Shown here piece by piece: positions 13,835 to 64,000 of a stretch of 64,000 nt of DNA. Source of the stretch: Pseudomonadales bacterium (GTDB lineage Bacteria; Pseudomonadota; Gammaproteobacteria; Pseudomonadales; UBA5518); assembly GCA_024234165.1 (NCBI GenBank), contig JACKOP010000005.1:123409-187408 (forward strand), written 5' to 3'. The translations under genes were made by a program, and so were the position numbers. The stretch's first letter is position 1, and each line of letters starts with the position of its first letter. The notes below the pieces were generated by a model. It saw only the letters and a list, made by a program, of their open reading frames with translations, did not search any database and was not told the DNA's origin.

Positions 13835-15457
13835 GTGCCGATGTCACGCCTGAGCCGACTCGCACGCATCATCCAGGTCTGCCGTCGTCACCGCCTCGAC
13901 ACCTTCCTCGACAGCGAGCAGTTGCCCGAGGGCTGGCAACGGTTCCTGCGCTGGCTTCCGGTGCGCTGGCGCCCTGAGCCTGTCGAACCACGCGCGCTGC
14001 GGTTGCGCCGCGCACTCGAGGAGCTCGGGCCGATCTTCATCAAGTTCGGCCAGTTGCTGTCGACCCGTCGCGACCTGATCCCGAGCGATCTTGCCGACGA
14101 ACTGAGCCGGCTGCAGGACAATGTGCCGCCCTTTGCGGCGAGCGAGGCGCGCGCGATCGTCGAGCGTGCGCTCGGCAAGCCGGTGAACGAACTGTTCGCG
14201 TGCTTCGAGGCCGAGCCGCTCGCGTCGGCATCGGTCGCGCAGGTACACGCAGCCACGCTGTTCGATGGCCGCGAAGTCGTCGTGAAAGTGGTCCGTCCGG
14301 GCATCGAGCGCACGATCCGACAGGACGTGCGGCTCCTGTATGCGCTGGCACGCCTCGTGCGCCGCTTCCATCCGGACGGACGACGACTGCGCCCGCTCGA
14401 TGTGGTGCGCGACTATGAACAGATCGTGCTCGACGAACTCGACCTGCAGCGCGAGGCTGCCAACACCTCGCAACTGCGGCGCAACTTCCTCGACTCGGAC
14501 CTGCTGTACGTACCCGAAGTGCACTGGGACTACACGCGACGCAACGTGTTCGTGATGGAACGCATACACGGCATTCCGGTATCCGATATCGAGGCACTGC
14601 ACCGTGCCGGTGTCGACATGAAGGAGCTTGCCGAGCGCGGCGTGCGCATCTTCTTCACACAGGTGTTTCGCGACAGCCTGTTTCATGCCGACATGCATCC
14701 GGGCAACATCTTCGTCGACGTCAGCAACCCTGCGAAGCCGCGCTACATCGGCATCGACTGCGCGATCATGGGCAGTCTCAGCGACTTCGACCAGTACTAT
14801 CTCGCGCGCAACCTGCTTGGCATCTTCCAGCGCCGTTACCGCGAGGTGGCCGAACTGCACGTCGAGTGCGGCTGGGTGCCGCCACAGACACGCGTGCACG
14901 ATTTCGAGGCGGCGATCCGCAGCGCCTGTGAACCGATCTTCGGCAAGCCACTGGGGGAGATCGGCTTTGCGCAGCTGCTGGTCTACCTGTTCCAGACTGC
15001 TCGGCGCTTCGACATGGAAATCCAGCCCTCGCTGGTGCTGCTGCAGAAAACCTTGCTGCACATCGAGGGGCTGGGGCGTCAGCTCTACCCCGATCTCGAC
15101 CTGTGGGAAACCGCCAAGCCGTTCCTCGAGCAGTGGGTGAGCGAACGCTACTCGCCGCGCGGCCTGATCGAGCGGCTGCAAAAGCGTGCCCCGCACTGGC
15201 TGGAACTTCTGCCCGAAGGCCCGGAGCGCCTGCTCGAGTTGCTGCGTCGCGCCACATCGCCACCCGATGCACCGCGCGCGACGGTGGCTCCCGCAGCGTC
15301 ACCACCGTGGCATCGCGGACAACTGCTGGCGGGCATCGCGGGCCTGCTGCTGGTGGAGCCGCGGTTCGCAAGCGTGGCCCCGCTCGACTGGCATCCGGCA
15401 GCCTGGGTGTTCGTGGCGCTGGCGATCTACGCACTCTCGCGCAGGAACATTTCATGA
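13835..15457 (+). CDS. ubiB: Ubiquinone biosynthesis protein UbiB (ABC1/atypical kinase family)
   Basis: [30 protein letters not shown] and [10 protein letters not shown], with C-terminal TM helices. The start is GTG 13835 or ATG 13841. Confidence 0.9.
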
Positions 15458-15506
15458 GCGCACGTGTAATCGTCACGCGAACGGCTCCGTGCCATAATCG
15501 CCAGCC

Positions 15507-15914
15507 ATGATGCAGACACGCTTCGATCCGACCACGGCAGTGCGCTGGGACGAACGCGGGCTCGCTCCCGCGATCGTGCAGGATGTGCACAGCGGGCGGG
15601 TTCTGATGCTCGCCTGGATGAACGCCGAGTCGCTGCGCCTGACCATCGGCGAAGGCCGTGCGGTATTCTGGTCACGTTCGCGCGGCAAGCTCTGGCGCAA
15701 GGGCGAAAGCTCGGGGCATGTGCAGCGGCTGCACGATCTCCGTCTCGACTGCGATGGCGACACACTGCTGCTCAGCGTCGAGCAGGACGGTGGCATCGCC
15801 TGCCATACCGGGCGCACGAGCTGCTTTTACCGGCGCCTCGCTCCCGGTGGCTGGGAGGATGCAGATCCGGTACTGCGTGACCCGCAGGCAATCTACGGAG
15901 ACGGCCATGAGTGA
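15507..15914 (+). CDS. hisI: Phosphoribosyl-AMP cyclohydrolase HisI
   Basis: LAPAIVQD...[10 protein letters not shown]...FWSRSR..LW.KGE.SGH...DCDGDTLLL...CHTG..SCF. Confidence 0.9.
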
Positions 15915-16266
15915 CGTGCTGGATCGTCTCGACGCGGTGATCACCGAGCGCCTGCAGAGCGCGGACCCGACGACTTCCTACGTCGCCAGCCTGCACCATG
16001 GCGGGATCGACCGCATCCTGAAGAAAATCGCCGAGGAAAGCGGCGAGACCCTGCTGGCAGCGAAGAACCTCGCCGCCGGCGGTGACCGGCAGGCGCTCGT
16101 CGGCGAAACGGCAGATCTGTGGTTCCATTGCCTGATCATGCTGGCAGCGCTCGATCTGCGCAGCCGCGACGTGCTCGAGGAACTCGAACGTCGCTTCGAT
16201 CTTTCCGGACTGGCCGAAAAGGCATCACGACGGCACCCGCTGCAAAGCAGCAACTCCGCAACCTAG
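15907..16266 (+). CDS. hisE: Phosphoribosyl-ATP pyrophosphatase HisE
   Basis: The ATG at 15907 overlaps the end of hisI by 8 nt. [30 protein letters not shown]...[13 protein letters not shown]. Confidence 0.9.
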
Positions 16267-49613: not shown

Positions 49614-50666
49614 TCATACGCCGGAGCCGCTCGTGCCGCGACGCATCGCCGACGGCACGCATCCGGTCCAGGATTTGAAGGCGCGCGAAAAGGTGACGGT
49701 GTCGCTGAAACCCAGCCGGGCAGCGATCTCACCGAGCGGCAACGAACGATCCCGCAGCAGGTCGAGCGCGAGCTCGTGCCGGCAGCGCTCCTTCAGTTGC
49801 CTGAGCGTGGTGCCTTCCTCGTTCAGTCGGCGCTTCAGCGTCGCACTGCTCAAACCCAACTGGCGGGCGATCCAGTTGGCATCGGGCGGCCGGTTCCCCT
49901 GCGCCAGTGCCGTGGCGAGCAGCTTGCGCACCCACGCGGAAGCGGGCGCAACGCTCGAGCGCCCGGCGCCGAGGTCGAACGGAAACGCCGTGCGCAGCAG
50001 TTCGTCGAGCTCGGCAGCACTGCGCACCACCGGCAACGCCAGATAGCGCGCGGGAAAGCTGAACGTGTTGTCTTGCGCGCCGTACTCGATGTCCCACGGC
50101 AGCAGCCACGATACGAGCTGCTGGTCCAGCACCGGACCGTAGCAGACCTTCACCGCAAGCGGCTCCAGATCCTTGCCCACCAACCAGCCGCCCAGCCGTG
50201 CAAAGCTCGACAACCCCGTGAAGACGCCGAAGATCATGTGCTCATCGCCGGGTATGTAGGCGGTATGCAGGCAGAACTCCGCAGTCGAACGCTCGGTACG
50301 CAACGACAGCGCGCCGGCTCCACCGTCGAACAGGGCATAGAAGTCGATTGCACGTTCGATGGCCTGGCCGAGCGTCGCGCTGCTGATCATGCAGTAGCAC
50401 ATCATGCGAAACTCGGACGGCCCCATCGGATGACGGCCGACGCGGCGCGCTTCGTTGCGCTCGAGCCGGTTCAGGCATTCACCGTAGACCGCCACGAACT
50501 GCGCATGGGAAACGTGCAGGCTGCTGCATGCTTTCAGATCAAGGATGCCTGCCCGGCGCAGGATCTCGTCCACATCGCCGCCGAGCTGGCCCACGACACG
50601 CAGCACGCTGCGCAGCAGCAGGCCTGCGGGCGGTGTGTGCGCTGATGCGAGCGGATTTCCGTTCAT
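49614..50666 (-). CDS. AraC-family transcriptional regulator
   Basis: The C-terminal double HTH ...LGLSSATLKRRLNEEGTTLRQLKERCRHELALDLLRDRSLPLGEIAARLGFSDTVTFSRAFKSWTG. It lies 30 nt upstream of, and is co-oriented with, the ATPase gene. Confidence 0.85.
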   Translation of the reverse strand: MNGNPLASAHTPPAGLLLRSVLRVVGQLGGDVDEILRRAGILDLKACSSLHVSHAQFVAVYGECLNRLERNEARRVGRHPMGPSEFRMMCYCMISSATLGQAIERAIDFYALFDGGAGALSLRTERSTAEFCLHTAYIPGDEHMIFGVFTGLSSFARLGGWLVGKDLEPLAVKVCYGPVLDQQLVSWLLPWDIEYGAQDNTFSFPARYLALPVVRSAAELDELLRTAFPFDLGAGRSSVAPASAWVRKLLATALAQGNRPPDANWIARQLGLSSATLKRRLNEEGTTLRQLKERCRHELALDLLRDRSLPLGEIAARLGFSDTVTFSRAFKSWTGCVPSAMRRGTSGSGV

Positions 50667-50746
50667 GGGCTGAATGGTGCGGCTCGATGCCGCCCATTCT
50701 AGCCCAGCCGGCAGCGACTGCTACGGCCGGGCTACCGGACCAGGAC

Positions 50747-53224
50747 TCACCTCAACACCCCATCGCTCAACAGACGCACGAATTCCTGGTCATCCATGTT
50801 CAGGATCTCTCGGCAGATCTGTTCCGTGTGTTCTCCGAACGATGGTCCGTAGATCTGAGTGACGGGGGTGCGCGACAACTTCAGCGGCCAACCGAAATAC
50901 AGGCTGTTGCCATAGCCCGGCTTGTCCAGTACGGAGTAGAACCCTCTCTCCCTGACGTGCGGATCAGATTCGACGATGTCACGGTCGTTCTTGACGACGC
51001 CGGCCGGAATGCCGGCATCCTGCAACAACTGCATCAACTCTTCGGCCGCATGCCCCACGGTCCACCGAGAGATTTGCCCATCCAGCTCATCCTCGTTTTC
51101 CTTCCTTCCTGTCAACGAATCGTATCGGGCATGGCGAACCCACTCGGGGTTCCCCATCACGCGTTTCAACGCATCCCATTGCCGGTCGGTCAATACGGCA
51201 ATGGCGCACCAGCGATTTTCGCCGCGGCACGCATACACGCCATGTGGTGCGGCATCGGGTGAACGATTTCCCTGCTTGCCCCTGACGCAACCATTTGCCG
51301 AGTATTCGAGCAACGGCAGGGCAAGCAGCGTCGTTGCCACTTCGTGCTGCGACAGATCGATGTACTGCCCCTCGCCGGTCCTCTCACGGTGATCAAGCGC
51401 AGAAAGAATCGCCAAGGTGCTGAACCAGGGCGCTGTTGCATCGGAGTAGGCGTTGTGTGGTGGTACCGAGATGCGATCGGGCCAACCCGTGAGGTAGGTA
51501 AACCCCCCGCGCGCCTGCTGCTCGACACCGAAACCGATCATCTCTGCCAGTGGTCCGGTTTGCCCGAAGCTGCTGGAGCTGATCATGATGATCGATGGGT
51601 TGATCTTGCGCAGTTCTTCGTAATCGAGCCCGAAGCTCTTCATGACACCCACGCTGAAATTCTCGGCAACGACATCCGCCCAGCTCACAAGTTTCCTGGC
51701 GATCTCCCGTCCTTCCTCCTTCGACAGGTCAAGATTCATCGCCCGTTTGCTGCTGTTCATCGCGATGGCAAAGTAACCGCCGTCCGCCGTACTCACGTTG
51801 TTCTTGTACGGCCCTACGGTTCGCAGGTTATCGATTGCTGCAAGGCTCTCGACCTTGATGACATCCGCGCCGAAATCTGCCAGGTACGTCGTGCTCAACG
51901 GGCCGGCAAGAATCCTGGAGAAATCCAGCACCTTCAGGCCTGCCAGCGCAGCGTGGATCCTTGCTCCCGATGCCGCATCGCCAGGCAATCGAGTTCGTGC
52001 GTTTCCAGCGTCAGCACGACGTGGCATCGAAGCGATTTCAAGGCGAATCTCGGCCGAGTGCTCTCCAGCTCGAGGGGCAGCCTTCGGCACAGCGCACGGG
52101 GTCGCACCAAGCTTGAACGGCGCCCCCGGGTGGAGCAGGCTGCGACCGAGTGCGGGATACCCGACATCAAGCAGGAAATTCCTGGATATCAGTTGTGGAT
52201 CCCGGGCAATGTCCGCAATGCTGTTGACCGGAGCCAATGCAAAGCGCCTTCTCAGCGCCTCGTCTGCAAGTTCCTGCTTGCTGTGTTTCGCAAAGAAGGC
52301 CAGAAAGGCTGCTTCGATACCTTCCAGTTCCTCCGGCGTGATCTTGAGAACGTCGAGTCGGCTCCAGTCGATGTCCACCAGATGCCCTGCATCACCCTTT
52401 TCGTCCATCCAGTCAACGAGCCGCTTGACCAGCCGGCCCAGCACGCCGCCGTAGACGCTGAACATCACTTCACCGTCCAGGCAGGGCCAGACCACCAACG
52501 GCGCAACCTTGGGTGAAAACCGCTGGCGGTTTCCGCTGCGCTCGGTAACCATCCGGGTGTGGTACCACCATGAAGGCGATGCCATGCCCAGTCGCATCAC
52601 CGCTTCATGCGCCGATACGTCGACATGCTGTCCTTCGTCGATCCGGTTTCTCGCCTGCAGGGCCAGCAAGGTACCGACCGCTCCATGCAGTCCGGCCTGG
52701 AGCCAGACCTGGTCGACCCCCATGCGCAAGGGCGCACGGTCCATGTATCCGCACTGGTTCATGATTCCGCCCAGCGCCCAGAGAACCAGGTCCGAGGCAT
52801 GCAGGTCGCGGAAAGGTCCCGTCTGCCCGAACGGCGTGATCGAGACGAAGATGAGGCCGGGGTTCAGCTCGCTCAAGGCCTCGTATCCGAGCCCCAGGCC
52901 GTCGAGATACCCGACTGGATACGATTCAATGAAAAAGTCGGCTGTTGCAACCAGTTGCTTCAGTTCTTCACGTCCGGACGGCGACTCGATATCGAGGGTG
53001 ATGCTTCTTTTTCCCGCATTGAGCGAATACCACAGGAGGCTCTTTTCAAGAGCCCGGGTGTCCTGCACCAAAGGCGCCGATTGACGCACGATATCGCCCG
53101 CCGGCGGTTCGACCTTGATGATATCGGCCCCGAGATCAGCCAGAAGCCGTCCGCAAAACATCCCGGTCTGGCCGCTGAGATCGAGGCCACGGTACGGGAG
53201 CAGGGGGCCTGTTCTGTTATGCAT
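50747..53224 (-). CDS. Tandem-fused family III CoA-transferase (two CaiB/BaiF/Frc-like modules in one 825-aa polypeptide)
   Basis: Module 1 has YRGLDLSGQTGMFCGRLLADLGADIIKVEPP and HASDLVLWALGG. Module 2 has LKVLDFSRILAGPLSTTYLADFGADVIKVES and AYSDATAPW. The ATG at 53222-53224 gives MHNRTGPLLPY. Confidence 0.85.
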   Translation of the reverse strand: MHNRTGPLLPYRGLDLSGQTGMFCGRLLADLGADIIKVEPPAGDIVRQSAPLVQDTRALEKSLLWYSLNAGKRSITLDIESPSGREELKQLVATADFFIESYPVGYLDGLGLGYEALSELNPGLIFVSITPFGQTGPFRDLHASDLVLWALGGIMNQCGYMDRAPLRMGVDQVWLQAGLHGAVGTLLALQARNRIDEGQHVDVSAHEAVMRLGMASPSWWYHTRMVTERSGNRQRFSPKVAPLVVWPCLDGEVMFSVYGGVLGRLVKRLVDWMDEKGDAGHLVDIDWSRLDVLKITPEELEGIEAAFLAFFAKHSKQELADEALRRRFALAPVNSIADIARDPQLISRNFLLDVGYPALGRSLLHPGAPFKLGATPCAVPKAAPRAGEHSAEIRLEIASMPRRADAGNARTRLPGDAASGARIHAALAGLKVLDFSRILAGPLSTTYLADFGADVIKVESLAAIDNLRTVGPYKNNVSTADGGYFAIAMNSSKRAMNLDLSKEEGREIARKLVSWADVVAENFSVGVMKSFGLDYEELRKINPSIIMISSSSFGQTGPLAEMIGFGVEQQARGGFTYLTGWPDRISVPPHNAYSDATAPWFSTLAILSALDHRERTGEGQYIDLSQHEVATTLLALPLLEYSANGCVRGKQGNRSPDAAPHGVYACRGENRWCAIAVLTDRQWDALKRVMGNPEWVRHARYDSLTGRKENEDELDGQISRWTVGHAAEELMQLLQDAGIPAGVVKNDRDIVESDPHVRERGFYSVLDKPGYGNSLYFGWPLKLSRTPVTQIYGPSFGEHTEQICREILNMDDQEFVRLLSDGVLR

Positions 53225-53340
53225 CGATGTCTCAAACCTCTTTTCTCGAACGCCGGAGACCGATTTCCTGGCTCTGACAATCCCCGCCGCCTCGACAGGC
53301 AAACAAGAACGATCCGGGTGCAAAGCGCAGCTTAGCAGAC

Positions 53341-53356
53341 TATTGCAATGACAATA
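53341..53356. promoter_or_regulatory. 16-bp palindrome TATTG-N6-CAATA upstream of the CoA-transferase gene
   Basis: TATTGCAATGACAATA lies 117 nt upstream of the start at 53224, in an AT-rich spacer. It has the same half-sites and spacing as the site at 58982-58997. Confidence 0.35.
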
Positions 53357-53474
53357 TATTTTTCATGTTTATCGATTTGACGAGACTGCACCGGCAGATC
53401 CACCCGGCCGACGACACAATCATCTTGGAACTACCGTTCGGCAAGAAAACGCCGAGCTGGCAGGGGGCACACGA

Positions 53475-54368
53475 CTAGTTCATCCACTTGCCGTTGCTTT
53501 GCATGGTGACGGAACGGCAGGTCGCCACCAGTTTTCGTGCATAACCCTGAATTTCTTCGGTTCCCAGCGAATCTCCGAAACCGGTCAGATAGATCACGTA
53601 ACTCACTTCGCCATGTGGATTGAAAATCGGTGCCGACAACATCCGCACCGGATAACGGCTTCCGCTCTTCGGGTACAGGAGGTAGTGGTCTTCAATGCCG
53701 AGTTTGTCGATGAGACTGGTCAGGCGCTCCCTGTCGCTGGGCGAGGACATTGAAAACGACACCTCTCGCACGGCTTCTCCGAGCTGGATCGGCAAGGCGG
53801 TTTCAAGATAGACAGCGTAGCCGTCCTTCCTGATGACGGAGAGGAGTTCATCGTACCTGGCTCGTTCGGCCTTGGTCACCTTGTGAGGAAGTTTCTTCAA
53901 CCATTGCTCGATCTTGTCGTTACTCGACCACGCCATGAACAAGGCTCCCAGGGGCGGGATCAATGGAACATGCTGGCCCACGCCCATGCTTGGCGCAGTG
54001 GAACGGTAACGACCATATCGCGCCAACCCCACCATGTCCTTTCCCATGCGTGCTGTCACCATCGCATCGAGATTGTTTTCTGCCGAGAGCTTGGCCGCTT
54101 CCTCTCTGGCTATGCCAATGGCCGGATGCCGCTCCAGCGCGGCCTGGCCGGTGGCAACCAGTGCCGGCCCCAGCGAGTAGGTCTTGTGGGTCGGATGCCT
54201 TACGAGATACCCGCTTTCCGTCAACGTATTCAGGATCGCATGGCACGACGCGATATTCACTTCAAGCCGCTGCACCAGCTCCGAGAGAGTGAATTCATGA
54301 CCGGGCTGATTCGCAATGAAATTGAGTATATCGATTGCGCGTGTTGCCGATAGCGCAGGTCTAGCCAT
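53475..54368 (-). CDS. IclR-family transcriptional regulator
   Basis: The N-terminal wHTH ATRAIDILNFIANQPGHEFTLSELVQRLEVNIASCHAILNTLTESGYLV, and a C-terminal IclR effector-domain length. Confidence 0.9.
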   Translation of the reverse strand: MARPALSATRAIDILNFIANQPGHEFTLSELVQRLEVNIASCHAILNTLTESGYLVRHPTHKTYSLGPALVATGQAALERHPAIGIAREEAAKLSAENNLDAMVTARMGKDMVGLARYGRYRSTAPSMGVGQHVPLIPPLGALFMAWSSNDKIEQWLKKLPHKVTKAERARYDELLSVIRKDGYAVYLETALPIQLGEAVREVSFSMSSPSDRERLTSLIDKLGIEDHYLLYPKSGSRYPVRMLSAPIFNPHGEVSYVIYLTGFGDSLGTEEIQGYARKLVATCRSVTMQSNGKWMN

Positions 54369-54374
54369 GCTTCT

Positions 54375-55670
54375 TCACTTCCCATGTACACGGAGCGGAG
54401 CAGGCAGATCCAGCAGCAGCACAAGACCGATTGCCAGCAATACCAATGTACCGCCAACAAGAAATGCGATCTGGTAACTGCCCAGTCGATCGTAGACGAA
54501 TGCGCCCAGCAGCGGACCAAGCGCCGGGCCCAGCACGGTAAAAACCGCAGCGATGCCCATGATTCCACCGAGAAACCGTGTTCCGAACAGCCCACCTATG
54601 ATGCGTGGATTTTGCGGGATGACCCCTCCGTAGGCAAATCCGAACATGACCGCAAAAAGATACAGCATCCATGCGTGACTTATGGCGGGCAAGATGAAAA
54701 GCGCCAGCGAAGCCAACAGCATGCTGTAAGTCAGCGCACGCCTCGTCCCGATCCGATCAGAGGCAGCCCCCATGACAAGGCGGCCAAGTGCATTGGATGC
54801 AGCTGCAACACCGAGGGCCAGCGCAGCGACGGATTCGGCAATTCCGACGTCCGTTGCATAGGGGACCATATGAATCTGGGCCATCATGATGCCGGAGAAC
54901 ATCAGGATCACCGACAGGTTGTAGATCCAGAACGCCGGACTGCACAACGCCTGCTTGACCGTGTGGTTTCGAGCGCCGCTCGCAGCCACATGCGCTGCGT
55001 GAACGGATGTGGCGCCGACAGCCTGTTCGCCAGACAGCATGGCCTCTTCGCCGAAGGCTTGCAGCCCCATCTCTGAGGGATCCTTCTTCATCAGGAGCCC
55101 CATGGCCAGGATCACACAGGCCGCACCCAACCCGGCGATCTCGAAAGTTTCGCGCCAACCGTATGCTGTTATCCAATGCTGCGTCAGCGGCGAAAGGATC
55201 ATGCCTCCCAGGCCTCCGGCGGAAAAAACGAGGCCAAGCGCAAGACCACGGCGCTGTACGAACCAGCGCGGGATCGTGGCCATCAACGGCACAATCAGGA
55301 AGGCAACGCCCAGCCCACCCAGGATGCTGTAGGCAAGGTAGAACTGTCGCAGATTCTCTACCTTGGCCGCACAAAAAAGACCGAGGCCAAGCAACAAGCC
55401 CCCAGCCAGGCTGGTGACACGTGGACCGAAGCGATCAACCGCAAATCCCGCCACGATGGACATGGCACCCACGATCATCATGAACAGGCCGAATGCACCC
55501 GTTACCTCGCTGCGAAGCCAGCCGAATTGCTGGGCCAGCGGCTTCACGAACACGCCGAAACAGATGGTTGGCCACAGAGCGATGGCATAGATGAGCGCGG
55601 CGGCCAGAACGATGACCCAGCCGTAAAAGAACGCTGCCTTGTCTCCTGGTGGGACGGAAGAGGTATTCAT
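54375..55670 (-). CDS. MFS transporter, oxalate/formate-antiporter (OFA) / monocarboxylate-type
   Basis: 12 TM segments with a central loop. FYGWVIVLAAALIYAI...FGVFVKPL..QFGW and the overall layout recall OFA/MCT-like MFS. The substrate is unknown. Confidence 0.8.
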   Translation of the reverse strand: MNTSSVPPGDKAAFFYGWVIVLAAALIYAIALWPTICFGVFVKPLAQQFGWLRSEVTGAFGLFMMIVGAMSIVAGFAVDRFGPRVTSLAGGLLLGLGLFCAAKVENLRQFYLAYSILGGLGVAFLIVPLMATIPRWFVQRRGLALGLVFSAGGLGGMILSPLTQHWITAYGWRETFEIAGLGAACVILAMGLLMKKDPSEMGLQAFGEEAMLSGEQAVGATSVHAAHVAASGARNHTVKQALCSPAFWIYNLSVILMFSGIMMAQIHMVPYATDVGIAESVAALALGVAAASNALGRLVMGAASDRIGTRRALTYSMLLASLALFILPAISHAWMLYLFAVMFGFAYGGVIPQNPRIIGGLFGTRFLGGIMGIAAVFTVLGPALGPLLGAFVYDRLGSYQIAFLVGGTLVLLAIGLVLLLDLPAPLRVHGK

Positions 55671-55671
55671 C

Positions 55672-57387
55672 TCAAGCGAAGAAGGCAGCCGTCATTTCGT
55701 TCAGTCCGGCGCCTTCGGGACTGACCATGAGTTCGATGAGCGTGGGCTTGCGCAAGCCGATCATCTCCTCCAGCGCCGGCTTGATCGCCGCTGCGTCGCT
55801 GATGCGCCTGGCAATCAGCCCGAAGCCCTCGGCCAGCGCGGCAAAGCTCAGCTCGCCAATGTCGTACACGGCACAATCGGCTCCATCCATCGGGGCGCCG
55901 ACCGCCTGCCCGTAGTAGCCGAAGAGGCCTCTCATCGAGCCGAAACCACCATTGTTGAAGACCACGAACACAATCGGTACCTGGTACCTGGCGGCGCTCC
56001 ACAGGGCCTGGATGCAAAACATGGCACCACCATCGCCAAGCAACGCGACGATCGCCTGGTCGGGACGCCCCATGGCGACTCCAAGTGCAGCCGGCACGCC
56101 CCATCCCAGGGAATCGACGCAGGTGAAGTAACTGCCTGGCTCACGAAATCCGATCACCTTGGGCAATTGTCCGTAGAACGATGCCAACTCGTCGACCACA
56201 GCAGCATTCCCGGGCAGCGCGGCAGCGATCTCCCTGAACGCTGCGCCCCAATGGACGGGCACCAATCCCGGATCGGCATTCAGGCAGCTCTCGACAAAGT
56301 CCTTTCGCTGCTGATGCTCTTCCCTCAACTGCGCCATTCGCTCGACATGCCTTGCCTTGTCAAGCAGCGGCTCGACGGCTTTGCGCAACTGGGCCAGTGC
56401 GAGCTTCGGATTCGCGAGCAAGGCGACTTCCGTCGGACAAAACCTGGCAAGTGCACAGGCATCGAGATCGATCTGGATGACACGCGTTGCCGGCGGCACG
56501 ACCGGCGAATCTGCCTGGTCGTCAAACTTGAATACATCGCTACCGATTTCCAGCAAGACATCGGCAGATGTCGCCACACGGCGAATGGCATGGCTCTGCT
56601 GGAAGAGCAGCCCACGATACAGGGGATGATCACTGGGGAAGATCAGTTTGGTTTCATTGCCCGTGTACACAGGCGCAGCCAACACTTCGGCCAATGCGAC
56701 CAGCTCGGACACCGCATCCGTATCAGCCACGGCGTGACCGGCAACTATCACCGGATTTCTTGCGGAGGCCAGCAGCCCGGCCACATGCTCCAGTGACCCG
56801 GCGGACAGGCCGGTATCCATTGTTACGCGCCGACCATGCGCAGGAAATGACTGGTGCGCCACGACCTGGCATTGCACTCCGTGCGGGATGGAGAGCACAA
56901 CCGGACCTGTTGGCGCGGTGCACGCTTCCTTGATTGCCCGATTCACGGCCACCGCCACGTCGTTTGCGCGCGTCACGCGCCAGCGTGCCTTGGTGACCTG
57001 GCTCACCATGGGGCGCACGTCGACATCCATGTAACGCTCGTTCCAGTCGAGCGAGGCATCCGTCTGTCCGACGATGACGAGAATCCGGCTTCCGGCGGCG
57101 TAAGCATTGTGCAGGTTTCCCATCGTGTTCGACAGGCCGCCGGTCGAATGCACGACTACGACGGCGAGCCTTCCGGTTGCCCGCGAATAGCCGTCTGCCA
57201 TACCCAGCGCAGCAGATTCGTGCGTGGCATGCACGAAGGTCATGTCAGGCGCTCGTCTCAATGCGTGCAACAGCGGTACGTTCGTGATGCCGCAAACACC
57301 GAAAACGCGATCGACGCCCTCTTCGCGAAGCATGCTCCACACGGCATCGGCACAACTCATCTCTACGGTCGTTTCTCCGTCATTCAT
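55672..57387 (-). CDS. Thiamine-diphosphate-dependent enzyme, benzoylformate-decarboxylase / acetolactate-synthase-like
   Basis: The N-terminal PYR domain VDRVFGVCGITNVPLLHAL...HESAALGMADGYSR. The ThDP-binding motif is LLGDGGAMFCIQALWSAARYQVPIVFVVFNNGGFG. 571 aa. Confidence 0.85.
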   Translation of the reverse strand: MNDGETTVEMSCADAVWSMLREEGVDRVFGVCGITNVPLLHALRRAPDMTFVHATHESAALGMADGYSRATGRLAVVVVHSTGGLSNTMGNLHNAYAAGSRILVIVGQTDASLDWNERYMDVDVRPMVSQVTKARWRVTRANDVAVAVNRAIKEACTAPTGPVVLSIPHGVQCQVVAHQSFPAHGRRVTMDTGLSAGSLEHVAGLLASARNPVIVAGHAVADTDAVSELVALAEVLAAPVYTGNETKLIFPSDHPLYRGLLFQQSHAIRRVATSADVLLEIGSDVFKFDDQADSPVVPPATRVIQIDLDACALARFCPTEVALLANPKLALAQLRKAVEPLLDKARHVERMAQLREEHQQRKDFVESCLNADPGLVPVHWGAAFREIAAALPGNAAVVDELASFYGQLPKVIGFREPGSYFTCVDSLGWGVPAALGVAMGRPDQAIVALLGDGGAMFCIQALWSAARYQVPIVFVVFNNGGFGSMRGLFGYYGQAVGAPMDGADCAVYDIGELSFAALAEGFGLIARRISDAAAIKPALEEMIGLRKPTLIELMVSPEGAGLNEMTAAFFA

Positions 57388-57453
57388 GCCTGCGTCCTCG
57401 CTCCCGGTCTGCTGCGTCTCAAGGAGTCAAATCCAGCTTTGCTCCGCATGTCA

Positions 57454-58911
57454 TCACGGTTGCGAATGGGCAAAGCTGGCACCACGTTCCACTACCTCGC
57501 GCTCGAAATTCTCGATGACCACCCAGCGCACCATGCGACGAAACAGCTCGATGCCATCATGCGGATAGCCCTCGGCCTCATACGTCGCGCAGCCCAGCGT
57601 GGTAAGACGCTGCGCACCCTGCAGGGCACATCGGTCACGGATTCGTTCCTTGAGGGATTCCGGATAGACGCCGATGGTCTGGGTATCGATGGTCACCCAC
57701 TGGAGGGCATCCTCGATCCTGTTCACCGGCACCAGGTTGACGACCCGGCCATTCAATTCGTCCTTGAACGGAACCGGTTCGCTTCGTCGTGAAATGACGA
57801 CACCGCCCTCGGATTGCTCGACACCGATGACACCGTAACGGGCGTCATGGCGTATCCCATCGATATCAGCGCGGAGTTGAGCGGGAAAATCGGGGCTGCA
57901 GGAACTGAACTGGGATGGCAGCGCCTGGATCGCCGCATGCACGAGCGCACCCAAGCGCTCTAGCCGCTCCACCCCCACCGCATCCACGCCACTTTCGACA
58001 TAGACCACCCGGGCATTGAGACATGCAGCCTGGTTCAACAGGCCTACGTCCTTGGCGATCTGTTCCGCAACATAATTCATGGACTCCTGCGACTCGAAAG
58101 CCTCGCTGCCGATCATCGAACCGCTGACCTTGGGATCGAGCGCGATGAGATCCAGCCCCGGCACGAGGTACTTGCGGACCTGGCGCATCGAGCTCGGACC
58201 GCCCCAGGCCAGGATCTTCTCGATGTTGCGTGGCGTGTACAGATGCTCCTCGACACCCGCATCCCCTCCTTTCCAGTAGCCCACCGTGTAGTGCCTGGTA
58301 ATCGGATGCGTGGGCGCCATCTCGATCATGGTCAAGCCCAGGGCCGTCGCAGTGAACGGGTCGTTGGATGGGAACTTGACGATGTTGTCGCACCGCAGGA
58401 TGGATCCGTGCATCAGACCGAAGGCAGCGGCTGCAGGGGAGTTGCCCGGGTTGAGGTGCACCGTCCGAGCGCCGAATGCGCGCACCTGGACTTCCCGATC
58501 GGCAAACTGGCGGCTCTCCCAGCCATCGAGGCATTCGATGCCCATCATCTTGTCGATCGCCTCCTCTATGGAGGCTCGATTGAAGGCAACGCTCAGTCCG
58601 TTGTACATCTGAGCCAGGATCTCCCTGGACTGGACGTTGGCTGCAAGATACATCTCCATGGCCTGACGAAGATGCGCATTCGTGTCCAGCCGGAGCCGCG
58701 CCCCGAGTTCTTCGAGATAGTCGAGGACATCCGCGACGGACAGCCGGTACATGTCCTCCATCTCGGCCGGATTGCGCAAGACGATCCGGTCGATGAACCG
58801 CTTTACATCAGGCGTCCGGAAGGACACGCCACCTCGCCGGCCCTGGAAAGGCACCATGTGATCGCGTATGACCTCGCCGCGAACAATCAGGGGGATGTCG
58901 TACTCTGTCAC
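57454..58911 (-). CDS. LuxC-family acyl-CoA/acyl-protein reductase paralog 1
   Basis: I prefer the GTG at 58909-58911 (AAGGAG lies 9 nt upstream). It gives MTEYDIPLIVRGEVI, parallel to paralog 2. VHLNPGNSPAAAAFGLMHGSILRCDNIVKFPSNDPFTATAL..HPITR..VGYW, ILAWGG, the active-site-type NQAAC, and GYPHDGIELFRRMVRW all align by eye with LuxC as I remember it. Confidence 0.8.
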   Translation of the reverse strand: MTEYDIPLIVRGEVIRDHMVPFQGRRGGVSFRTPDVKRFIDRIVLRNPAEMEDMYRLSVADVLDYLEELGARLRLDTNAHLRQAMEMYLAANVQSREILAQMYNGLSVAFNRASIEEAIDKMMGIECLDGWESRQFADREVQVRAFGARTVHLNPGNSPAAAAFGLMHGSILRCDNIVKFPSNDPFTATALGLTMIEMAPTHPITRHYTVGYWKGGDAGVEEHLYTPRNIEKILAWGGPSSMRQVRKYLVPGLDLIALDPKVSGSMIGSEAFESQESMNYVAEQIAKDVGLLNQAACLNARVVYVESGVDAVGVERLERLGALVHAAIQALPSQFSSCSPDFPAQLRADIDGIRHDARYGVIGVEQSEGGVVISRRSEPVPFKDELNGRVVNLVPVNRIEDALQWVTIDTQTIGVYPESLKERIRDRCALQGAQRLTTLGCATYEAEGYPHDGIELFRRMVRWVVIENFEREVVERGASFAHSQP

Positions 58912-58981
58912 GCTCGCATGCTCCTTGATCAAGCCTGAGAAATGGTTGCAAGCATCTCACGCTTACATCTATAGAAAACTT

Positions 58982-58997
58982 TATTGCTATATCAATA
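58982..58997. promoter_or_regulatory. 16-bp palindrome TATTG-N6-CAATA in the divergent luxC1 / luxE1 promoter region
   Basis: TATTGCTATATCAATA is palindromic at 14 of 16 positions. It lies in the 236-bp AT-rich spacer between 58911 and 59148. Confidence 0.35.
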
Positions 58998-59147
58998 CAT
59001 GGTATGGTCGCAACCTGATAGCGTCAAGTCACCCCATCAGGGGTCATGCACAACATGTTCACCCGCTGACGCAGCGTAACGGATCGGATACATCGGCATA
59101 CCAAAGCTCGTTTCCTGTCACGCGGCCCTGGAGTTGAAGCGACAATC

Positions 59148-60584
59148 ATGGCTACGCAAGTCGATCCGCAAACCGCTCGCGCCTATAAAACGCGGTTTCT
59201 CGAAAACCCCGCGAATTTCCTTGATTACCCGATCGACGTCGTCTTTTCGCTAGACCCGGCAGAGCTGGACGCAATGCATCTTCGACATGCGAAGGACAGG
59301 TTCGCCTTCGGCGTCGAACACATTGCCATGGTGCGCCAACTGGCAACGCAGAACGAGGTCTCCGGCATCGACTCCTTCGACGACCTCCTGCCTCTGCTGT
59401 ACAGCCAGGACACCTTCAAGAGCTATCCTCAATCCTGGCTCGAGACCGGAGATTTCAACCGCCTGAACAGATGGCTCGGGAAGCTGTGTGCCATCGATCT
59501 GCGCAACGTCGACGCATCGTCCTGCTCTCTCATCGAAGACTGGATAAAGGTTCTGGCCAGCGAATCCGGCGTCGACCTTCTCATTTCGGCTGGCGCCGAC
59601 GGGAAGGCCGCATTCCTGCCACGCACCCGTGACGAGTGGGGAGTGATGCATCGCGTCACCCTCTGGAACTTCCAGTCATCCATGACGGGAAGGAACGGAG
59701 AGTCCCTTGCCTTGCGGGTCGGGGTAGACAAGGCGCCACTGATACATCCCGGTGCGCGCGGCGGCGCACGCAGCTGGGGACGCTTCCTCGACTTCTACGA
59801 ACAGACCTTCGGTACCGGTCTTGTCGATGCGCCGCTCGGTTACAACGACTCCGATCTGCTCAGCCTTGCCGGTCGCATACGCGAAGCCAGCAAGAAGGGC
59901 GAAGCGGGTTCGCTGCAGATCAATCCGGAGTTGCTGGCGCGCAAGGATGAAATTGCCCGCATCAATGCGGACAAGCCACGGCGCATGGAAGCCCTGATGC
60001 AACGCCTGGGCAACGACTACCGAGGTCGCCGCATCATCTGTTACAGCAGCATGCAGATGCTCCACGATCTGGCAACGCGCCTGCGCGACCAGCACATCAC
60101 GGGGGCCTTCGCTCCCGACTCGTTTTTTTTCTGCGGAGGCGGATTCGCCGATGGCAAGGAGCCAGCCAACTGGAAACAGCAGGCAGCCGCGGTGCTGGGC
60201 ATACCAGAAACCTCGATTCACGTAGGCTACGGCATGCAGGAAGGTCTTTGGGCAACGAATCAGTGTCCGGCAGGCAGGTTCCACGTCCCGGTCACCGTCA
60301 TCCCGTTCGTTCTCGACGAAACGAACAATCAGCCGCTGCCCCGTACCGGCAGGCAGACAGGAAGGTTCGCCTTCTTCGACCTGCTGCCCACTACCTCGTG
60401 GGGCGGTTACATCAGCAGTGACCGGGTCACCATTTCATGGGATCGACACTGCGACTGTGGTCGCATGGGCGCCTTTCTCGACGCAGACATCAGCAAGGTA
60501 CCCGAAAGGCAGGACGACAAGATCGGCTGTGCCGGCACGTCCGGGGCTCTGGAAGACGCCACCGATTTCCTGCTCCGTACGTGA
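59148..60584 (+). CDS. LuxE-like acyl-protein synthetase paralog 1 (degenerate phosphate-binding motif, Cys-containing C-terminal tail)
   Basis: Collinear with paralog 2 (LLPLLYSQDTFKSY, FCGGGF, CDCGR). The SSGTSG position instead reads SAGADG (59586-59603). The C-terminal tail is ...ERQDDKIGCAGTSGALEDATDFLLRT, with the Cys codon at 60528-60530. Confidence 0.65.
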   Translation: MATQVDPQTARAYKTRFLENPANFLDYPIDVVFSLDPAELDAMHLRHAKDRFAFGVEHIAMVRQLATQNEVSGIDSFDDLLPLLYSQDTFKSYPQSWLETGDFNRLNRWLGKLCAIDLRNVDASSCSLIEDWIKVLASESGVDLLISAGADGKAAFLPRTRDEWGVMHRVTLWNFQSSMTGRNGESLALRVGVDKAPLIHPGARGGARSWGRFLDFYEQTFGTGLVDAPLGYNDSDLLSLAGRIREASKKGEAGSLQINPELLARKDEIARINADKPRRMEALMQRLGNDYRGRRIICYSSMQMLHDLATRLRDQHITGAFAPDSFFFCGGGFADGKEPANWKQQAAAVLGIPETSIHVGYGMQEGLWATNQCPAGRFHVPVTVIPFVLDETNNQPLPRTGRQTGRFAFFDLLPTTSWGGYISSDRVTISWDRHCDCGRMGAFLDADISKVPERQDDKIGCAGTSGALEDATDFLLRT

Positions 60585-60608
60585 TCAATAAATTCCGCGG
60601 GTATCGAC

Positions 60609-62069
60609 ATGACCAAGTACCGGATCCCCATCATTGCACGAGGCCAGGTCATCGATGACTACGAAGTCATCTGTCACGGCCGGTATGGCGCCGATTTCGC
60701 GTGCCCCGACCCGAACAAGTACCTGTCAAGAATCCTGTTGCCTTCACGCCGCGCAATGGAACCTCTCTACCAACTGTCGTTGGACGAGGTCGTCAGCTAC
60801 TTGCTGGAACTGGGAAAGCATCTGAAGACAGCGACCAATCCGCACCTGCAATGGGCTCTTGAACTTGCCAGGGCTTTCAACGATGTGCCACCGCACATGG
60901 TCCGGAACGCCATGGACAGTTTTCAGGATCGATTCCTGTCTCGCTCGACTCTCGAAGGGATGATCGATACGGTAGGACGCGAGCATCTCGACGGTTGGCA
61001 ACGTCACGAACGTGACTCGGGACGCATCTCCTACATCCGTGCCTTCGGGGTGCCCACGGCACACGTGATTGCCGGCAATGGCCCATCTGTCGCCATGATG
61101 ACGCTGGTGCGCAACGCTCTCATCCGCGGCTACGCCATCGTAAAGATCCCCTCGAACGAACTGGGCACCGCCGTTGCCCTCGCACGCACGGCAATCGACA
61201 TGGCTCCTGACCACCCTCTGACCAAGGCATTCAGTGCTGTTTACTGGCGCGGGGGCGACGACGCTTTCGAATCCCGCCTGTACCACCCCAGGAATGTCGA
61301 GCGCATCGTCGCATGGGGCGGCTTCGCATCGGTCACGCATATCGCCAAATACGTACGCCCCGGCATCGATCTCGTGACCTTCGACCCGAAGATCAGTCGT
61401 TCCGTACTGGGACCAGGCACGTTCGCCTCGGATGCCAGCATGAGTGAAGCGGCCATGCGCCTGGCCGACGATGTCGGCAATGGCAACCAGAACGGGTGCA
61501 CCAATTGCCGGGTGTCCTACGCCATAAACGATGGAAGCTCTGATTTCCTGGACAAGGTGAAGCGTTTCGGCCAGATGGTGTTCGATGAAATCCAGCGACT
61601 GCCTCACGAGGTGAGCAGCCCCGCCATTCACATGGACCCGGGGTTTCAGTCGAAAGTAGCGGCTTTGGCGATGCTCGACGACGATTATCACGTCGTCGGT
61701 GGTGACAAACGCGGAGGCGTGATCGTCTCGATCGAAGGCGACCAGGTGGATTTTGCCGACGAACTCAAGTATCGGACACTGAACATCGTCCCCGTGAAGG
61801 ATTACGACGCCATGCTTCGCTTTGTCACGCGCGACGTACAGACCGTAGGCGTGTATCCAGAAAGCGTGCGCGATGAGCTTCGCACGGTCCTGGCTCTCCA
61901 TGGCGTACAGCGAATCACATCCCTCGGGTTCATGCGCGAATACGACGCGGCAATTGATCCACACGATGGGAACGAAGCCTTGCGAAAGATGTGTACCTGG
62001 GTCGTTGCCGAGGATTGCATCACGAACCACGCCCCCGCACTCTGGCGCAAGGCAGGCAGCACGGGCTGA
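60609..62069 (+). CDS. LuxC-family acyl-CoA/acyl-protein reductase paralog 2
   Basis: MTKYRIPIIARGQVI, AHVIAGNGPSVAMMTLVRNALIRGYAIVKIPSNELGTAVAL..HPLTK..AVYW, IVAWGG, NQNGC, DPHDGNEALRKMCTWV. Confidence 0.8.
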   Translation: MTKYRIPIIARGQVIDDYEVICHGRYGADFACPDPNKYLSRILLPSRRAMEPLYQLSLDEVVSYLLELGKHLKTATNPHLQWALELARAFNDVPPHMVRNAMDSFQDRFLSRSTLEGMIDTVGREHLDGWQRHERDSGRISYIRAFGVPTAHVIAGNGPSVAMMTLVRNALIRGYAIVKIPSNELGTAVALARTAIDMAPDHPLTKAFSAVYWRGGDDAFESRLYHPRNVERIVAWGGFASVTHIAKYVRPGIDLVTFDPKISRSVLGPGTFASDASMSEAAMRLADDVGNGNQNGCTNCRVSYAINDGSSDFLDKVKRFGQMVFDEIQRLPHEVSSPAIHMDPGFQSKVAALAMLDDDYHVVGGDKRGGVIVSIEGDQVDFADELKYRTLNIVPVKDYDAMLRFVTRDVQTVGVYPESVRDELRTVLALHGVQRITSLGFMREYDAAIDPHDGNEALRKMCTWVVAEDCITNHAPALWRKAGSTG

Positions 62070-62076
62070 AAGATCG

Positions 62077-63387
62077 ATGAACACGAACATCTTCGCTCAT
62101 GTGCACGCCCCAGGCGATCTCTTGCTGCATCCACAGGTCGATCCCGGGTTCCTGATTCGCCGCGACGTCGAGGAATTCCAGCTGACAGCCGCCAGGCTCC
62201 GGCTGCAAAGCCATGCCGAACGCATCCCCGCCGTGAGCGAATTGCTGGCCGGCAAGGACCCCATGTCCTTCACCCGCATCGACGATTTCATTGCCGTGCT
62301 CTTCGAGGAAGACATCTACAAAAGCTACGACCCGACGTGGATCGACGACGGCGAATTCGACAAGATGACCCGCTGGCTGGATCGACTCAGCACACACGAT
62401 CTTTCCAGGGTCGAGACCCATGACTGTGACAGTCTTACCGCGTGGTGTCGGCGCCTCGACGAACAGGCGGGCATCTTCATCTGCCATTCGTCGGGAACCA
62501 GCGGCACCCTGAGCTTCGTTCCTCGTTCGCAGCGCGATCGCGATCTGGCGGTCGATCATGTGGTGTGGTACAGCCATCCGTTGTTCAAGCCGAACCAACG
62601 CAATGACGTAACGTATTTTTGCATGCAGGCACGGCGTCAGTACCGCATCACTCAACCCATCTATGATGGACTGGAGGAGCGGTTCCAGATCAATCCAGTG
62701 GAAGCACTGACCGATTTCCTCAGTCCAGAGTTCTTCATCACCCAAGGCAAGCTACGCAAGGCGGCCTCAGCCGGCACGATGGACGAGTGCCTGAAAAGAA
62801 ACCTCATCGTGGCAGCCCATCGCGAGGAAGTGGAACGCTACCAGCAGAACCTGCCGCACCTCATCAAGCGCTGGACCGAAAATCTCATTGAGAACTACCG
62901 CGGGCGGCAAATTTTTTTCCAGGGCTCATTCGACAAGGCCTGGCAGATCACTCAGCTCTTCAGCAAGATGGGTGTCACCTGTGCCTTCGCCCCTGAGTCC
63001 AGGTTTTCCCTGTTTGGCGGAGTCAAGGACGGCAGTCAGCTACCGGATGACTGGCAGGATCAGTTCCGGCGCGTAACCGGGGTGTCCGAAGACAATCTGA
63101 TCTTCGGTTGGGGCATGTCCGAGATGACGGGAGCACTATTGCGCTGCTCCCATGGCATGTTTCATTTCATGATCCAGATCATCCCCTTCCTGCTCGAACC
63201 GGGAACTCGCGTCCCGCTTCCGCGCCAGGGAACCCAGACCGGCCAGTTGGCCATTCTCGAACTCGTCTCGGAAGATTGCTGGGGCGGCATGATCAGCGGC
63301 GACCGTGGCACCATCCACTGGGACAAGACCTGTGCCTGCGGGCGTGACGGCCCCTTGCTCGACCCGCAAAGCATCGGACGCCTGTAG
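62077..63387 (+). CDS. LuxE-like acyl-protein synthetase / acyl-adenylate-forming enzyme paralog 2 (intact SSGTSG, no C-terminal Cys tail)
   Basis: IAVLFEEDIYKSY, FICHSSGTSGTLSFVPRS (motif at 62488-62505; compare LuxE F-T-S-S-G-T-x-G...VPR), FGGVKDG. It ends ...CACGRDGPLLDPQSIGRL*. Confidence 0.7.
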   Translation: MNTNIFAHVHAPGDLLLHPQVDPGFLIRRDVEEFQLTAARLRLQSHAERIPAVSELLAGKDPMSFTRIDDFIAVLFEEDIYKSYDPTWIDDGEFDKMTRWLDRLSTHDLSRVETHDCDSLTAWCRRLDEQAGIFICHSSGTSGTLSFVPRSQRDRDLAVDHVVWYSHPLFKPNQRNDVTYFCMQARRQYRITQPIYDGLEERFQINPVEALTDFLSPEFFITQGKLRKAASAGTMDECLKRNLIVAAHREEVERYQQNLPHLIKRWTENLIENYRGRQIFFQGSFDKAWQITQLFSKMGVTCAFAPESRFSLFGGVKDGSQLPDDWQDQFRRVTGVSEDNLIFGWGMSEMTGALLRCSHGMFHFMIQIIPFLLEPGTRVPLPRQGTQTGQLAILELVSEDCWGGMISGDRGTIHWDKTCACGRDGPLLDPQSIGRL

Positions 63388-63393
63388 CGCAGA

Positions 63394-64000
63394 TCACACG
63401 GTCAACAGCGGCGCCACGGAAGCTGCGAAGCACTGGATCTGTTCGATGCATTCCTGCGTTGACCGGGAGCGGAAGCGCACCTGGAGATGATTCACTCCCA
63501 TGCTCACCAGTCCTCGCAACGATTCCGCGATTTGCTCGGCATGACCGATCAGCGATCCAGCGGGAAGCTCCCATCCAGGATCGTTGCGACTGGATTCGAT
63601 TATGTGCATCGGCTCAACGATCGTGCCGATATCCAGCCACGAGTCGTTCCTGAACTCGCGGCGCAACTCGCGAATCCGCTGGATCTGCTCATGAAGAGCA
63701 CTTCTCGGTGTCCCTTGCGGCAGCCAACCATCGCCATAGGCCGCAACCCGACGCAGTGCCGCCGGACTCGATCCGCCGATCCACACCGGCGGTCTTGGTT
63801 CCTGTACCGCTCGCGGGCCAATATGCATGCCCGAGAAACTCCAGCAGGAACCCTCGTGGGTGGCAGCCTCTGCTTCGAGACATTGCATCAACGCCTCGAT
63901 TGCTTCGTCGCCCCGCTTGCCTCGTTGCGCGAAGCTGCCCGGACCGTTCAACACGTCGAACTCTTCCGCCACATGCCCGACGCCAACGCCGATGACGAGT
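63394..64000 (-). CDS. Luciferase-like monooxygenase (LLM) family flavin/deazaflavin oxidoreductase, C-terminal part (gene runs off the right edge)
   Basis: The frame is open to the window edge (...LVIGVGVGHVAEEFDVLNGPGSFAQRGKRGDEAIEAL...PVWIGGSSPAALRRVAAYGDGWLP...). This pattern resembles the LLM subclass annotated as F420-dependent. Convergent with luxE2, with a 6-nt gap. Confidence 0.7.
   Translation of the reverse strand, partial: LVIGVGVGHVAEEFDVLNGPGSFAQRGKRGDEAIEALMQCLEAEAATHEGSCWSFSGMHIGPRAVQEPRPPVWIGGSSPAALRRVAAYGDGWLPQGTPRSALHEQIQRIRELRREFRNDSWLDIGTIVEPMHIIESSRNDPGWELPAGSLIGHAEQIAESLRGLVSMGVNHLQVRFRSRSTQECIEQIQCFAASVAPLLTV

Follow-up and report, generated by a model that had tools for sequence, protein, structure and literature searches.

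Complementary losses in two LuxE-like paralogs flanking luxC2 suggest an acyl-protein synthetase split over two polypeptides

Two paralogous genes that bracket a LuxC-family reductase gene, luxC2, have lost complementary parts of a LuxE-like enzyme. The genes, here called E1 and E2, lie in a 64,000-nucleotide stretch of contig JACKOP010000005.1 from a Pseudomonadales bacterium (assembly GCA_024234165.1), referred to below as the window. E1 lacks residues used for adenylation and retains a cysteine-bearing C-terminal tail; E2 retains the adenylation residues and ends where that tail should begin. On this sequence evidence we consider it probable that E1, LuxC2 and E2 together make up a three-subunit, LuxCE-type carboxylic-acid reductase whose synthetase is divided between two paralogs. 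LuxE-LuxC is the textbook bacterial route from a free acid to an aldehyde via a protein-bound thioester, while relatives of the pair outside luminous bacteria are, to our knowledge, almost unstudied. The genes and the residues in question are as follows.

59148-60584, plus strand: E1, LuxE/PaaK-like paralog of 478 amino acids (aa), predicted to be adenylation-dead, Cys-bearing C-terminal tail kept
59586-59606, plus strand: degenerate P-loop SAGADGK (E1 residues 147-153), aligned with the SSGTSG of both E2 and LuxE
60135-60155, plus strand: GGGFADG (E1 residues 330-336), with Ala334 in place of the Lys equivalent to LuxE Lys238
60495-60497, plus strand: E1 Lys450, at alignment column 549, where Arg is invariant in complete relatives and E2
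60501-60581, plus strand: C-terminal tail of E1 (residues 452-478), PERQDDKIGCAGTSGALEDATDFLLRT, with Cys461 at 60528-60530 in the context DDKIGC461AGT
60609-62069, plus strand: luxC2, LuxC-family acyl-thioester reductase of 486 aa, catalytic Cys present
62077-63387, plus strand: E2, LuxE/PaaK-like paralog of 436 aa, adenylation residues intact, without the Cys tail
62488-62505, plus strand: E2 P-loop SSGTSG (residues 138-143), aligned to the P-loops of LuxE and PaaK
63025-63027, plus strand: E2 Lys317 (GGVKDG), at alignment column 411, the LuxE Lys238 equivalent by alignment
63379-63387, plus strand: E2 Arg435-Leu436-stop; the protein ends one residue past the conserved Arg, at the tail start of relatives

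E1 and E2 are collinear paralogs, as an earlier note on this DNA had proposed, with 29% identity over 428 columns (E 6e-64). Translation also bears out that note's placement of SSGTSG at 62488-62505, of SAGADG at 59586-59603 and of the Cys codon at 60528-60530, as well as its description of the pair as bracketing luxC2 in an operon-like arrangement: 24 nucleotides (nt) separate the E1 stop from the luxC2 start, and 7 nt the luxC2 stop from the E2 start. The ATG at 62077 is most likely the start of E2, because its orthologs are 435-457 aa long and the longer open reading frame (ORF), of 504 aa from 61873, runs into luxC2.

To place these losses, homologs were grouped into 44 E1-type proteins (43-96% identical to E1), 45 E2-type proteins and about 50 complete relatives. 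The last are roughly 30-36% identical to E1 or E2 and come from Mycobacterium, Pseudomonas, Halioglobus, Heimdallarchaeota and others. The respective losses are present in 44/44 E1-type and 45/45 E2-type proteins, and the complete relatives carry both elements. Each of the lost columns is lost in one clade only and is 86-100% kept in the complete relatives. The complementary pattern is thus confirmed as real and not a product of chance; its one exception among the relatives examined is a Sphingobium locus disrupted by an insertion sequence (IS). The complementarity also goes beyond what the earlier note described, since E1 is without the Lys238 equivalent and relaxed at the Arg as well, both of which E2 keeps.

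The cryo-EM study of LuxC-LuxE provides the reference for these positions. LuxE activity depends critically on the Lys238/Arg355 pair, to which its authors attribute a part in both adenylation and thioesterification, and K238A is inactive; Cys364, within the C-terminal motif TRxxKGCxLS, accepts the acyl group and delivers it to the cysteine of LuxC (PMC9157457). In E1, SAGADG stands at the P-loop position as previously claimed, in the same column as the SSGTSG of E2 and the P-loops of LuxE and PaaK. The P-loop Thr, invariant in complete relatives, is replaced by Ala in 66% of the E1 clade, and the Ser that follows the P-loop is replaced by Ala in 72%. Column 411 is Lys in all complete relatives (100%) and in nearly all of the E2 clade (96%); none of the E1 orthologs read has Lys there, Ala being the commonest residue (66%). 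Column 549 is mostly Lys in E1 orthologs, though variable (K, R, M), and the Gly of the GD motif, conserved in complete relatives and kept in the E2 clade, is lost in the E1 clade. A further position, Lys91 of E1 (YKSYP motif, 59418-59420), is Lys in 100% of E2 and complete relatives and varies (K/R/Q/S) only in the E1 lineage; the Lys of F..YKSYP may be an additional active-site residue, undescribed for LuxE.

The tail of E1 was described as 24 residues long, which needs correcting: the extension past the end of E2 is 27 residues (452-478). The conservation of its Cys, on which the earlier note had made its reading depend, holds without exception, at 100% in both the E1 clade and the complete relatives. 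Cys461 is the 18th residue from the C-terminus (461 of 478). Conservation of 90% or more is found at 44% of the positions in the tail as against 30% across the whole of E1, and the tail motif occurs once in the six frames of the window. Because E1 retains 59 of 73 family-conserved positions (columns at least 85% conserved in the complete group) and E2 only 50 of 73, the losses in E1 are targeted and not a sign of general decay.

E2 presents the reverse case, and the statement that it keeps SSGTSG and is without a C-terminal tail applies to all 45 E2-type proteins. E2 itself terminates in ...SIGRL and every member of its group in ...R[LIV]; the DDKIxC tail is absent in 100%. A hidden tail, downstream or in another frame, was ruled out, none being found in the six frames. 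The Arg at column 549 is 100% conserved in the E2 clade and in the complete relatives, and is probably the counterpart of LuxE Arg355. Elsewhere in the family, a subclade (P0250, P0251, P0254, P0255, P0261, P0267, P0269) has intact catalytic residues and a full-length tail in which the Cys is replaced (e.g. ...EHAIGAAS...), another route to loss of the acyl-accepting Cys; its members lie on short contigs that show no partner genes. The tail-less P0265 was rejected as a further example, as it lies in an IS-rich region without LuxC. It is the first gene of a tandem pair of 436-aa genes (L055 and L056, 7001-9715) that occurs twice in one IS/transposase-rich 2.9-Mb contig, and no LuxC gene was called in the 7-kb flanks of these pairs.

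Gene order was followed in a locus scan that took one genome per species and yielded 42 loci, in which every LuxE-like and LuxC-like ORF was classified. In 11 of these the contig is intact and the E1 ortholog is 57% or more identical to E1, and all 11 have the order E1-luxC2-E2 together with the same residue signature. Their hosts are Halioglobus species, Zhongshania borealis, a fully syntenic Gammaproteobacteria metagenome-assembled genome (MAG; L005), and Binatia, Acidobacteria and Novosphingobium MAGs. The question raised in the earlier note, whether orthologous clusters repeat the complementary pattern, is answered positively by 11/11 intact loci. More distant cases agree. A deep-branching triad on one contig consists of P0227 (SSTLGGK, no Lys, Cys tail), a LuxC gene and P0260 (STGTSGK, Lys, ending in ...SRY), and the rearranged locus L051, ordered luxC, E2-like, E1-like, keeps the complementary pattern. 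In all cases seen where the contig is long enough, E2 adjoins a tail-bearing dead copy; the contigs of P0231, P0341 and P0251 are too short to include partner genes. As a control, the clusters of Paraburkholderia/Trinickia (L022-L045, e.g. L022 6100-11311) contain luxC followed by two LuxE-like paralogs that both carry the P-loop, Lys, Arg and Cys tail. Since both of these copies are complete, duplication alone does not yield complementary losses, and the control speaks against coincidence.

The trees are in line with a single origin of the pair. In neighbour-joining trees, bootstrap support for monophyly is 100% for the E1 clade and 100% for the E2 clade, while a sister relationship of the two has 78%, and the deep members (the P0227/P0260 triad and L051) fall on the respective E1 and E2 sides. 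Given sister clades with deep members on the matching sides, the data fit a single old event in which a complete LuxE-like gene was duplicated and the copies then underwent complementary losses. E1 and E2 are both under purifying selection: the ratios of nonsynonymous to synonymous substitution (dN/dS) against three orthologous loci are 0.12 for E1, 0.05-0.07 for luxC2 and 0.09-0.15 for E2, rough values with dS near saturation. The reading frame of E1 is unbroken in orthologs from several phyla, and 71 columns are invariant. The exact sequence is found in many activated-sludge and wastewater metagenomes, and contigs from sludge metatranscriptomes (60239-60873, 60243-61899, 61925-62274 and 61931-62138) cover all three genes and span both junctions, which points to transcription of the region. 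In two metatranscriptomes, the side of the cluster with luxC1 (a second LuxC-family gene, divergent from E1) and a thiamine-diphosphate enzyme gene (57000-58945), and a luciferase-like gene beyond E2 (63249-64000), are found on single long contigs at a depth of 10-20, versus about 3-6 for the E1-luxC2-E2 operon.

The family to which E1 and E2 belong is only distantly connected to LuxE. Searches of Pfam and NCBIfam gave no hit for either protein, even with the E limit relaxed to 10 or 1, and the Pfam LuxE model PF04443 is among those that fail to match; a precomputed PF04443 match is present in a few relatives. Single-sequence phmmer searches of E1 and E2 against the PDB found no match either. 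A 110-sequence family profile does reach the solved LuxE structure 7XC6_E (E 1.1e-9) and also PaaK ligases, and its alignment sets the family SSGTxG and GGGxK opposite SSGTSG and GGGWK (Lys238) of LuxE, the PaaK P-loop being SSGTTGK. Hence, the description of the paralogs as LuxE-like stands at the level of the profile but not at that of PF04443, and their relation to LuxE is one of superfamily-level homology, short of family membership.

AlphaFold2 models of E1 and E2 are confident, with predicted local distance difference test (pLDDT) values of 94.0 and 95.6, respectively, and the best Foldseek matches of both are PaaK-family ligases (2Y27, 2Y4O, 4R1M; probability 1.0, E 3e-12 to 9e-12, template-modelling score 0.52-0.59). 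In these models, both proteins have the fold of the large N-terminal domain of the PaaK-like branch of the ANL superfamily. The A5 Glu and A7 Asp (GYGMQE/SSDR in E1, GWGMSE/SGDR in E2) are invariant across the clades, and the rotating C-terminal subdomain with the A10 catalytic Lys is missing from both proteins, which end 27-53 residues past the A7 Asp (Asp425 of 478 in E1, Asp409 of 436 in E2). LuxE likewise is without this subdomain (PMC9157457).

The family comprises 454 clusters at E <= 1e-30 among 1.84 billion representative proteins. Four residues of E1, Cys373, His379, Cys435 and Cys437 (60264-60266, 60282-60284, 60450-60452 and 60456-60458), are invariant in E1, E2 and complete relatives. 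They comprise a Cys, a His and the CxC of CxCGR, and all four are replaced jointly in the Paraburkholderia/Trinickia clade, whose paralogs are missing this quartet. As the four co-vary, they suggest a Cys3His metal site, possibly for zinc. Complete-type members also adjoin LuxC genes in Asgard archaea (L020, a Candidatus Heimdallarchaeota chromosome); P0378, P0400 and P0451 are further Asgard members of this type, annotated by one source as 'LuxE/PaaK family acyltransferase'.

LuxC2 matches Pfam PF05893 (E 9e-40, 137 bits, cut-off 21), as does LuxC1 (E 3e-42, 145 bits). Against the LuxC equivalog model, both reach only about 113 bits and fall below its cut-off of 750. The catalytic Cys is present in each, the NQNGC of LuxC2 lying opposite DQQAC of 7XC6_A and the corresponding motif of LuxC1 being NQAAC. 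LuxC2 is the best-conserved member of the triad, with 74-86% identity among orthologs. LuxC1 is 44-49% identical to the reductase partners of complete enzymes and 40% identical to LuxC2, and among the loci read its gene adjoins the triad only in the window and in L005. A LuxC gene adjoins the pair at every triad locus read, that of the window included.

Based on these observations, the following sequence of events can be proposed. E2 would bind ATP and the acid and form an acyl-adenylate by means of its P-loop, Lys317 and Arg435, but would have no cysteine arm on which to place the acyl group. E1, presumably incapable of adenylation because of SAGADG and Ala334, would supply the retained arm DDKIGC461AGT, with Cys461 attacking the adenylate in the E2 site, in trans. 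The loaded arm would then swing to the catalytic Cys of LuxC2, from which the aldehyde would be released with NAD(P)H. E1 would in this way be an enzyme that lost its activity and was given over wholly to acyl carriage. This reading, in which an adenylate-forming enzyme, now dead, serves only as a protein carrier of acyl groups, loaded in trans by E2 and unloaded by LuxC2, we regard as having an even chance of being right. We infer the contact among E1, E2 and LuxC2, the transfer of the acyl group between subunits, the substrate and the obligate nature of the pairing.

Several observations weigh against this proposal. The equivalence of the column-549 Arg with Arg355 depends on spacing and on a bridging sequence, P0205, with no alignment to LuxE. 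E1 retains the Mg/ribose-binding residues Glu365 and Asp425 as well as His379, for which a pure carrier has no obvious need; E1 may still bind AMP or the acyl-adenylate. In the AlphaFold2 model, a helix spanning residues 461-477 of E1 (pLDDT 83-86) starts at Cys461, unlike the floppy loop of LuxE. The metatranscriptome contigs could include DNA carry-over. L015 of Sphingobium sp. R-21 (9932-15538) has no E2 near its luxC2-like gene and its E1-like gene, the product of which reads STTTSGK, is without the Lys and bears a Cys tail; transposase/IS-like ORFs occupy the expected E2 site, and the locus may be a disrupted triad. Finally, at L057 (3698-8111), the dead, Cys-bearing P0352 is encoded between the complete P0356, to which it is 50% identical, and LuxC. 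P0352 (HAVAEGGK, GGAFGQR) has no Lys and has lost the Arg, but keeps the Cys tail, and P0231, P0353 and P0437 share in this loss. L057 looks like a first step or halfway stage of an E1/E2-type split, reached by an independent loss inside the complete clade. Given that the P0352 lineage has a dead Cys-bearing copy beside a complete one, the dead-paralog route seems to have begun more than once in the family. At the same time, L057 means that supplying a missing Cys cannot be the sole reason why dead copies persist.

This last point bears on a rival explanation, in which E2 is a self-sufficient ligase that passes the acyl group directly to the LuxC2 Cys or to CoA, and E1 is a non-catalytic scaffold or regulator whose Cys has some other role. 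At L057, the dead paralog coexists with an enzyme in no need of a donated Cys, and the subclade with intact catalytic residues and Cys-less tails shows that the family has members without it; moreover, a CoA-transferase gene lies within the same syntenic block as the triad, and LuxC accepts acyl-CoA in vitro (bioRxiv 10.1101/2025.08.11.669332). Against it stand a Cys whose DDKIxCAG context is invariant among orthologs and identical to the motif of the complete enzymes, a tail that is the best-conserved part of E1, and an E2 that is cut exactly at the tail start and has a tail-bearing dead copy as its neighbour. We therefore judge this explanation unlikely, if worth keeping in mind. The earlier proposal of one adenylating and one acyl-carrying paralog is supported by the residue pattern, the conservation and the gene order, while L057 leaves some probability to its own alternative, E1 as scaffold or acyl acceptor.

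The work could also be divided by half-reaction, such that E2 only adenylates and the adenylate moves to the pocket of E1, where Cys461 forms the thioester in cis before delivery to LuxC2. The fold of the pocket is by and large preserved in E1, as are Asp425, Glu365 and His379, which contact AMP/ribose, but adenylate-forming enzymes normally hold the acyl-adenylate tightly. The residues lost in E1, at the P-loop and the Lys238/Arg355 positions, are indeed those needed for LuxE adenylation; yet K238A of LuxE is fully inactive and the Lys/Arg pair is assigned to both half-reactions (PMC9157457), which makes such a division improbable. A very small chance is left for E1 and E2 being independent enzymes with different substrates, E1 active despite its odd P-loop and perhaps serving LuxC1, E2 serving LuxC2. 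The window does contain two LuxC genes, one beside each paralog, and P-loop variants of some adenylate-forming enzymes retain partial activity. However, E1 is also without the Lys whose replacement by Ala kills LuxE, E2 is without any acyl-accepting Cys, and in most genomes the triad has one LuxC, with E1 and E2 travelling together (L015 being the exception). An incidental pattern, with E1 a pseudogene in decay, can practically be dismissed: canonical catalytic residues have been lost from E1, but its intact frame, its invariant columns, its dN/dS of about 0.12 like that of E2, its larger share of family-conserved positions and its metatranscriptome coverage all contradict decay.

The surroundings of the triad contain the following features.

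57454-58932, minus strand: luxC1, second LuxC-family reductase of 492 aa, transcribed divergently from E1
58933-59147: luxC1-E1 intergenic region, 215 bp, divergent
55672-57387, minus strand: thiamine-diphosphate enzyme resembling benzoylformate decarboxylase, a context gene
50747-53323, minus strand: protein of 858 aa with a double family III CoA-transferase domain
63394-64000, minus strand: luciferase-like (LLM-class) oxidoreductase, PF00296, convergent with E2 and truncated by the window end

A major facilitator superfamily transporter and an IclR regulator are further neighbours. Scans for promoters, terminators and palindromes in 58.8-63.7 kb, the luxC1-E1 intergenic region included, gave nothing beyond chance. 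Over the last 14 kb (about 50000-64000), which contain the whole cluster, G+C drops from about 0.67-0.70 to about 0.59-0.61, and L005 shows synteny with the window from the CoA-transferase through to the LLM gene; these 14 kb may be a horizontally acquired island. A bioluminescence lux operon was considered and rejected, as neither a luxA/luxB luciferase nor luxD was seen. The best model for the luciferase-like gene at 63394-end is the F420-dependent LLM oxidoreductase TIGR03619, below its cut-off. An LLM gene occupies the same position in L005 (14273-14845) and L010 (3901-4470), and others lie near LuxE-like/LuxC clusters of unrelated genomes (L002 13250-14272, L001 2880-3980), a complete-type Mycobacterium locus among them; the association echoes the lux operon.

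The thiamine-diphosphate enzyme scores 338 bits against the benzoylformate decarboxylase equivalog (cut-off 493). Homologs lie beside or near the triad in L004 (18475-20181), L011 and L012 (about 14300-16010), L001 (5209-6879) and L006 (1-1356). The recurrence of this neighbour is a hint that 2-oxo acids or aldehydes, and not fatty acids, are what the pathway works on. The CoA-transferase resembles the succinyl-CoA:mesaconate and formyl-CoA transferase types of NCBIfam, all below cut-off, and has homologs in L005 and L006.

If the proposed split is correct, adenylation and acyl carriage reside on separate polypeptides, and the steps of LuxE, including how an arm reaches two active sites, could be studied separately. 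E1 would represent a type of carrier protein not described before, the pair would be a clear example from nature of a single active site undergoing subfunctionalisation, and adenylate-forming enzymes would join the families with functional pseudoenzyme partners. For proteins now annotated as 'hypothetical', the signature of P-loop, GGGxK, Arg and DDKIxC sorts complete members from those that are dead with an arm and those that are live without one. Carboxylic-acid reductases are wanted in biocatalysis, and a form built from three separate proteins, found in bacteria abundant in wastewater, may take substrates other than fatty acids, as the recurrent decarboxylase-like neighbour hints.

Full-text searches of the literature returned no description of a split or paralogous LuxE, nor of a pseudoenzyme partner among adenylate-forming enzymes; the 'lux-like' mel2 locus of Mycobacterium marinum has no LuxE homolog according to its authors. 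The closest known system is LuxE-LuxC of Photobacterium phosphoreum (7XC6). As there, the adenylate-forming enzyme is without the usual C-terminal subdomain, the SSGTSG and the GGGxK Lys align, a LuxC-family reductase with a catalytic Cys is encoded adjacently, and a short C-terminal arm bears a Lys-x-Cys motif, which is the acyl carrier in LuxE and is found here on E1. Unlike LuxE, which performs every step as one protein, the catalytic residues and the Cys arm are placed on two paralogs that bracket luxC; E1 and E2 are also 60-100 residues longer than LuxE and below the Pfam LuxE threshold. Complete single-copy members, such as P0062 of Mycobacterium marseillense (beside LuxC and a short-chain dehydrogenase) and those of Halioglobus, Porticoccaceae and Heimdallarchaeota, are of the same family and length and share the CxCG/His/Asp motifs and the adjacency to LuxC. 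In these members a single chain has the P-loop, the Lys, the Arg and also the Cys tail, and the genes occur as E-C pairs, whereas E1 and E2 carry half-sets.

PaaK-family phenylacetate-CoA ligases, the best structural matches, have the P-loop and the N-terminal helical region in common with E1 and E2. They differ in that their C-terminal subdomain is complete and holds the catalytic Lys422, and in using free CoA as acceptor (PMC9157457), while E1 and E2 end soon after the A7 Asp. In pairs of pseudoenzyme and enzyme, reviewed for pseudokinases and pseudo-GTPase septins, a dead paralog is likewise selected as the partner of a live one. Compared with those pairs, E1 appears to keep a covalent carrier function, so that its part would not be a purely allosteric one.

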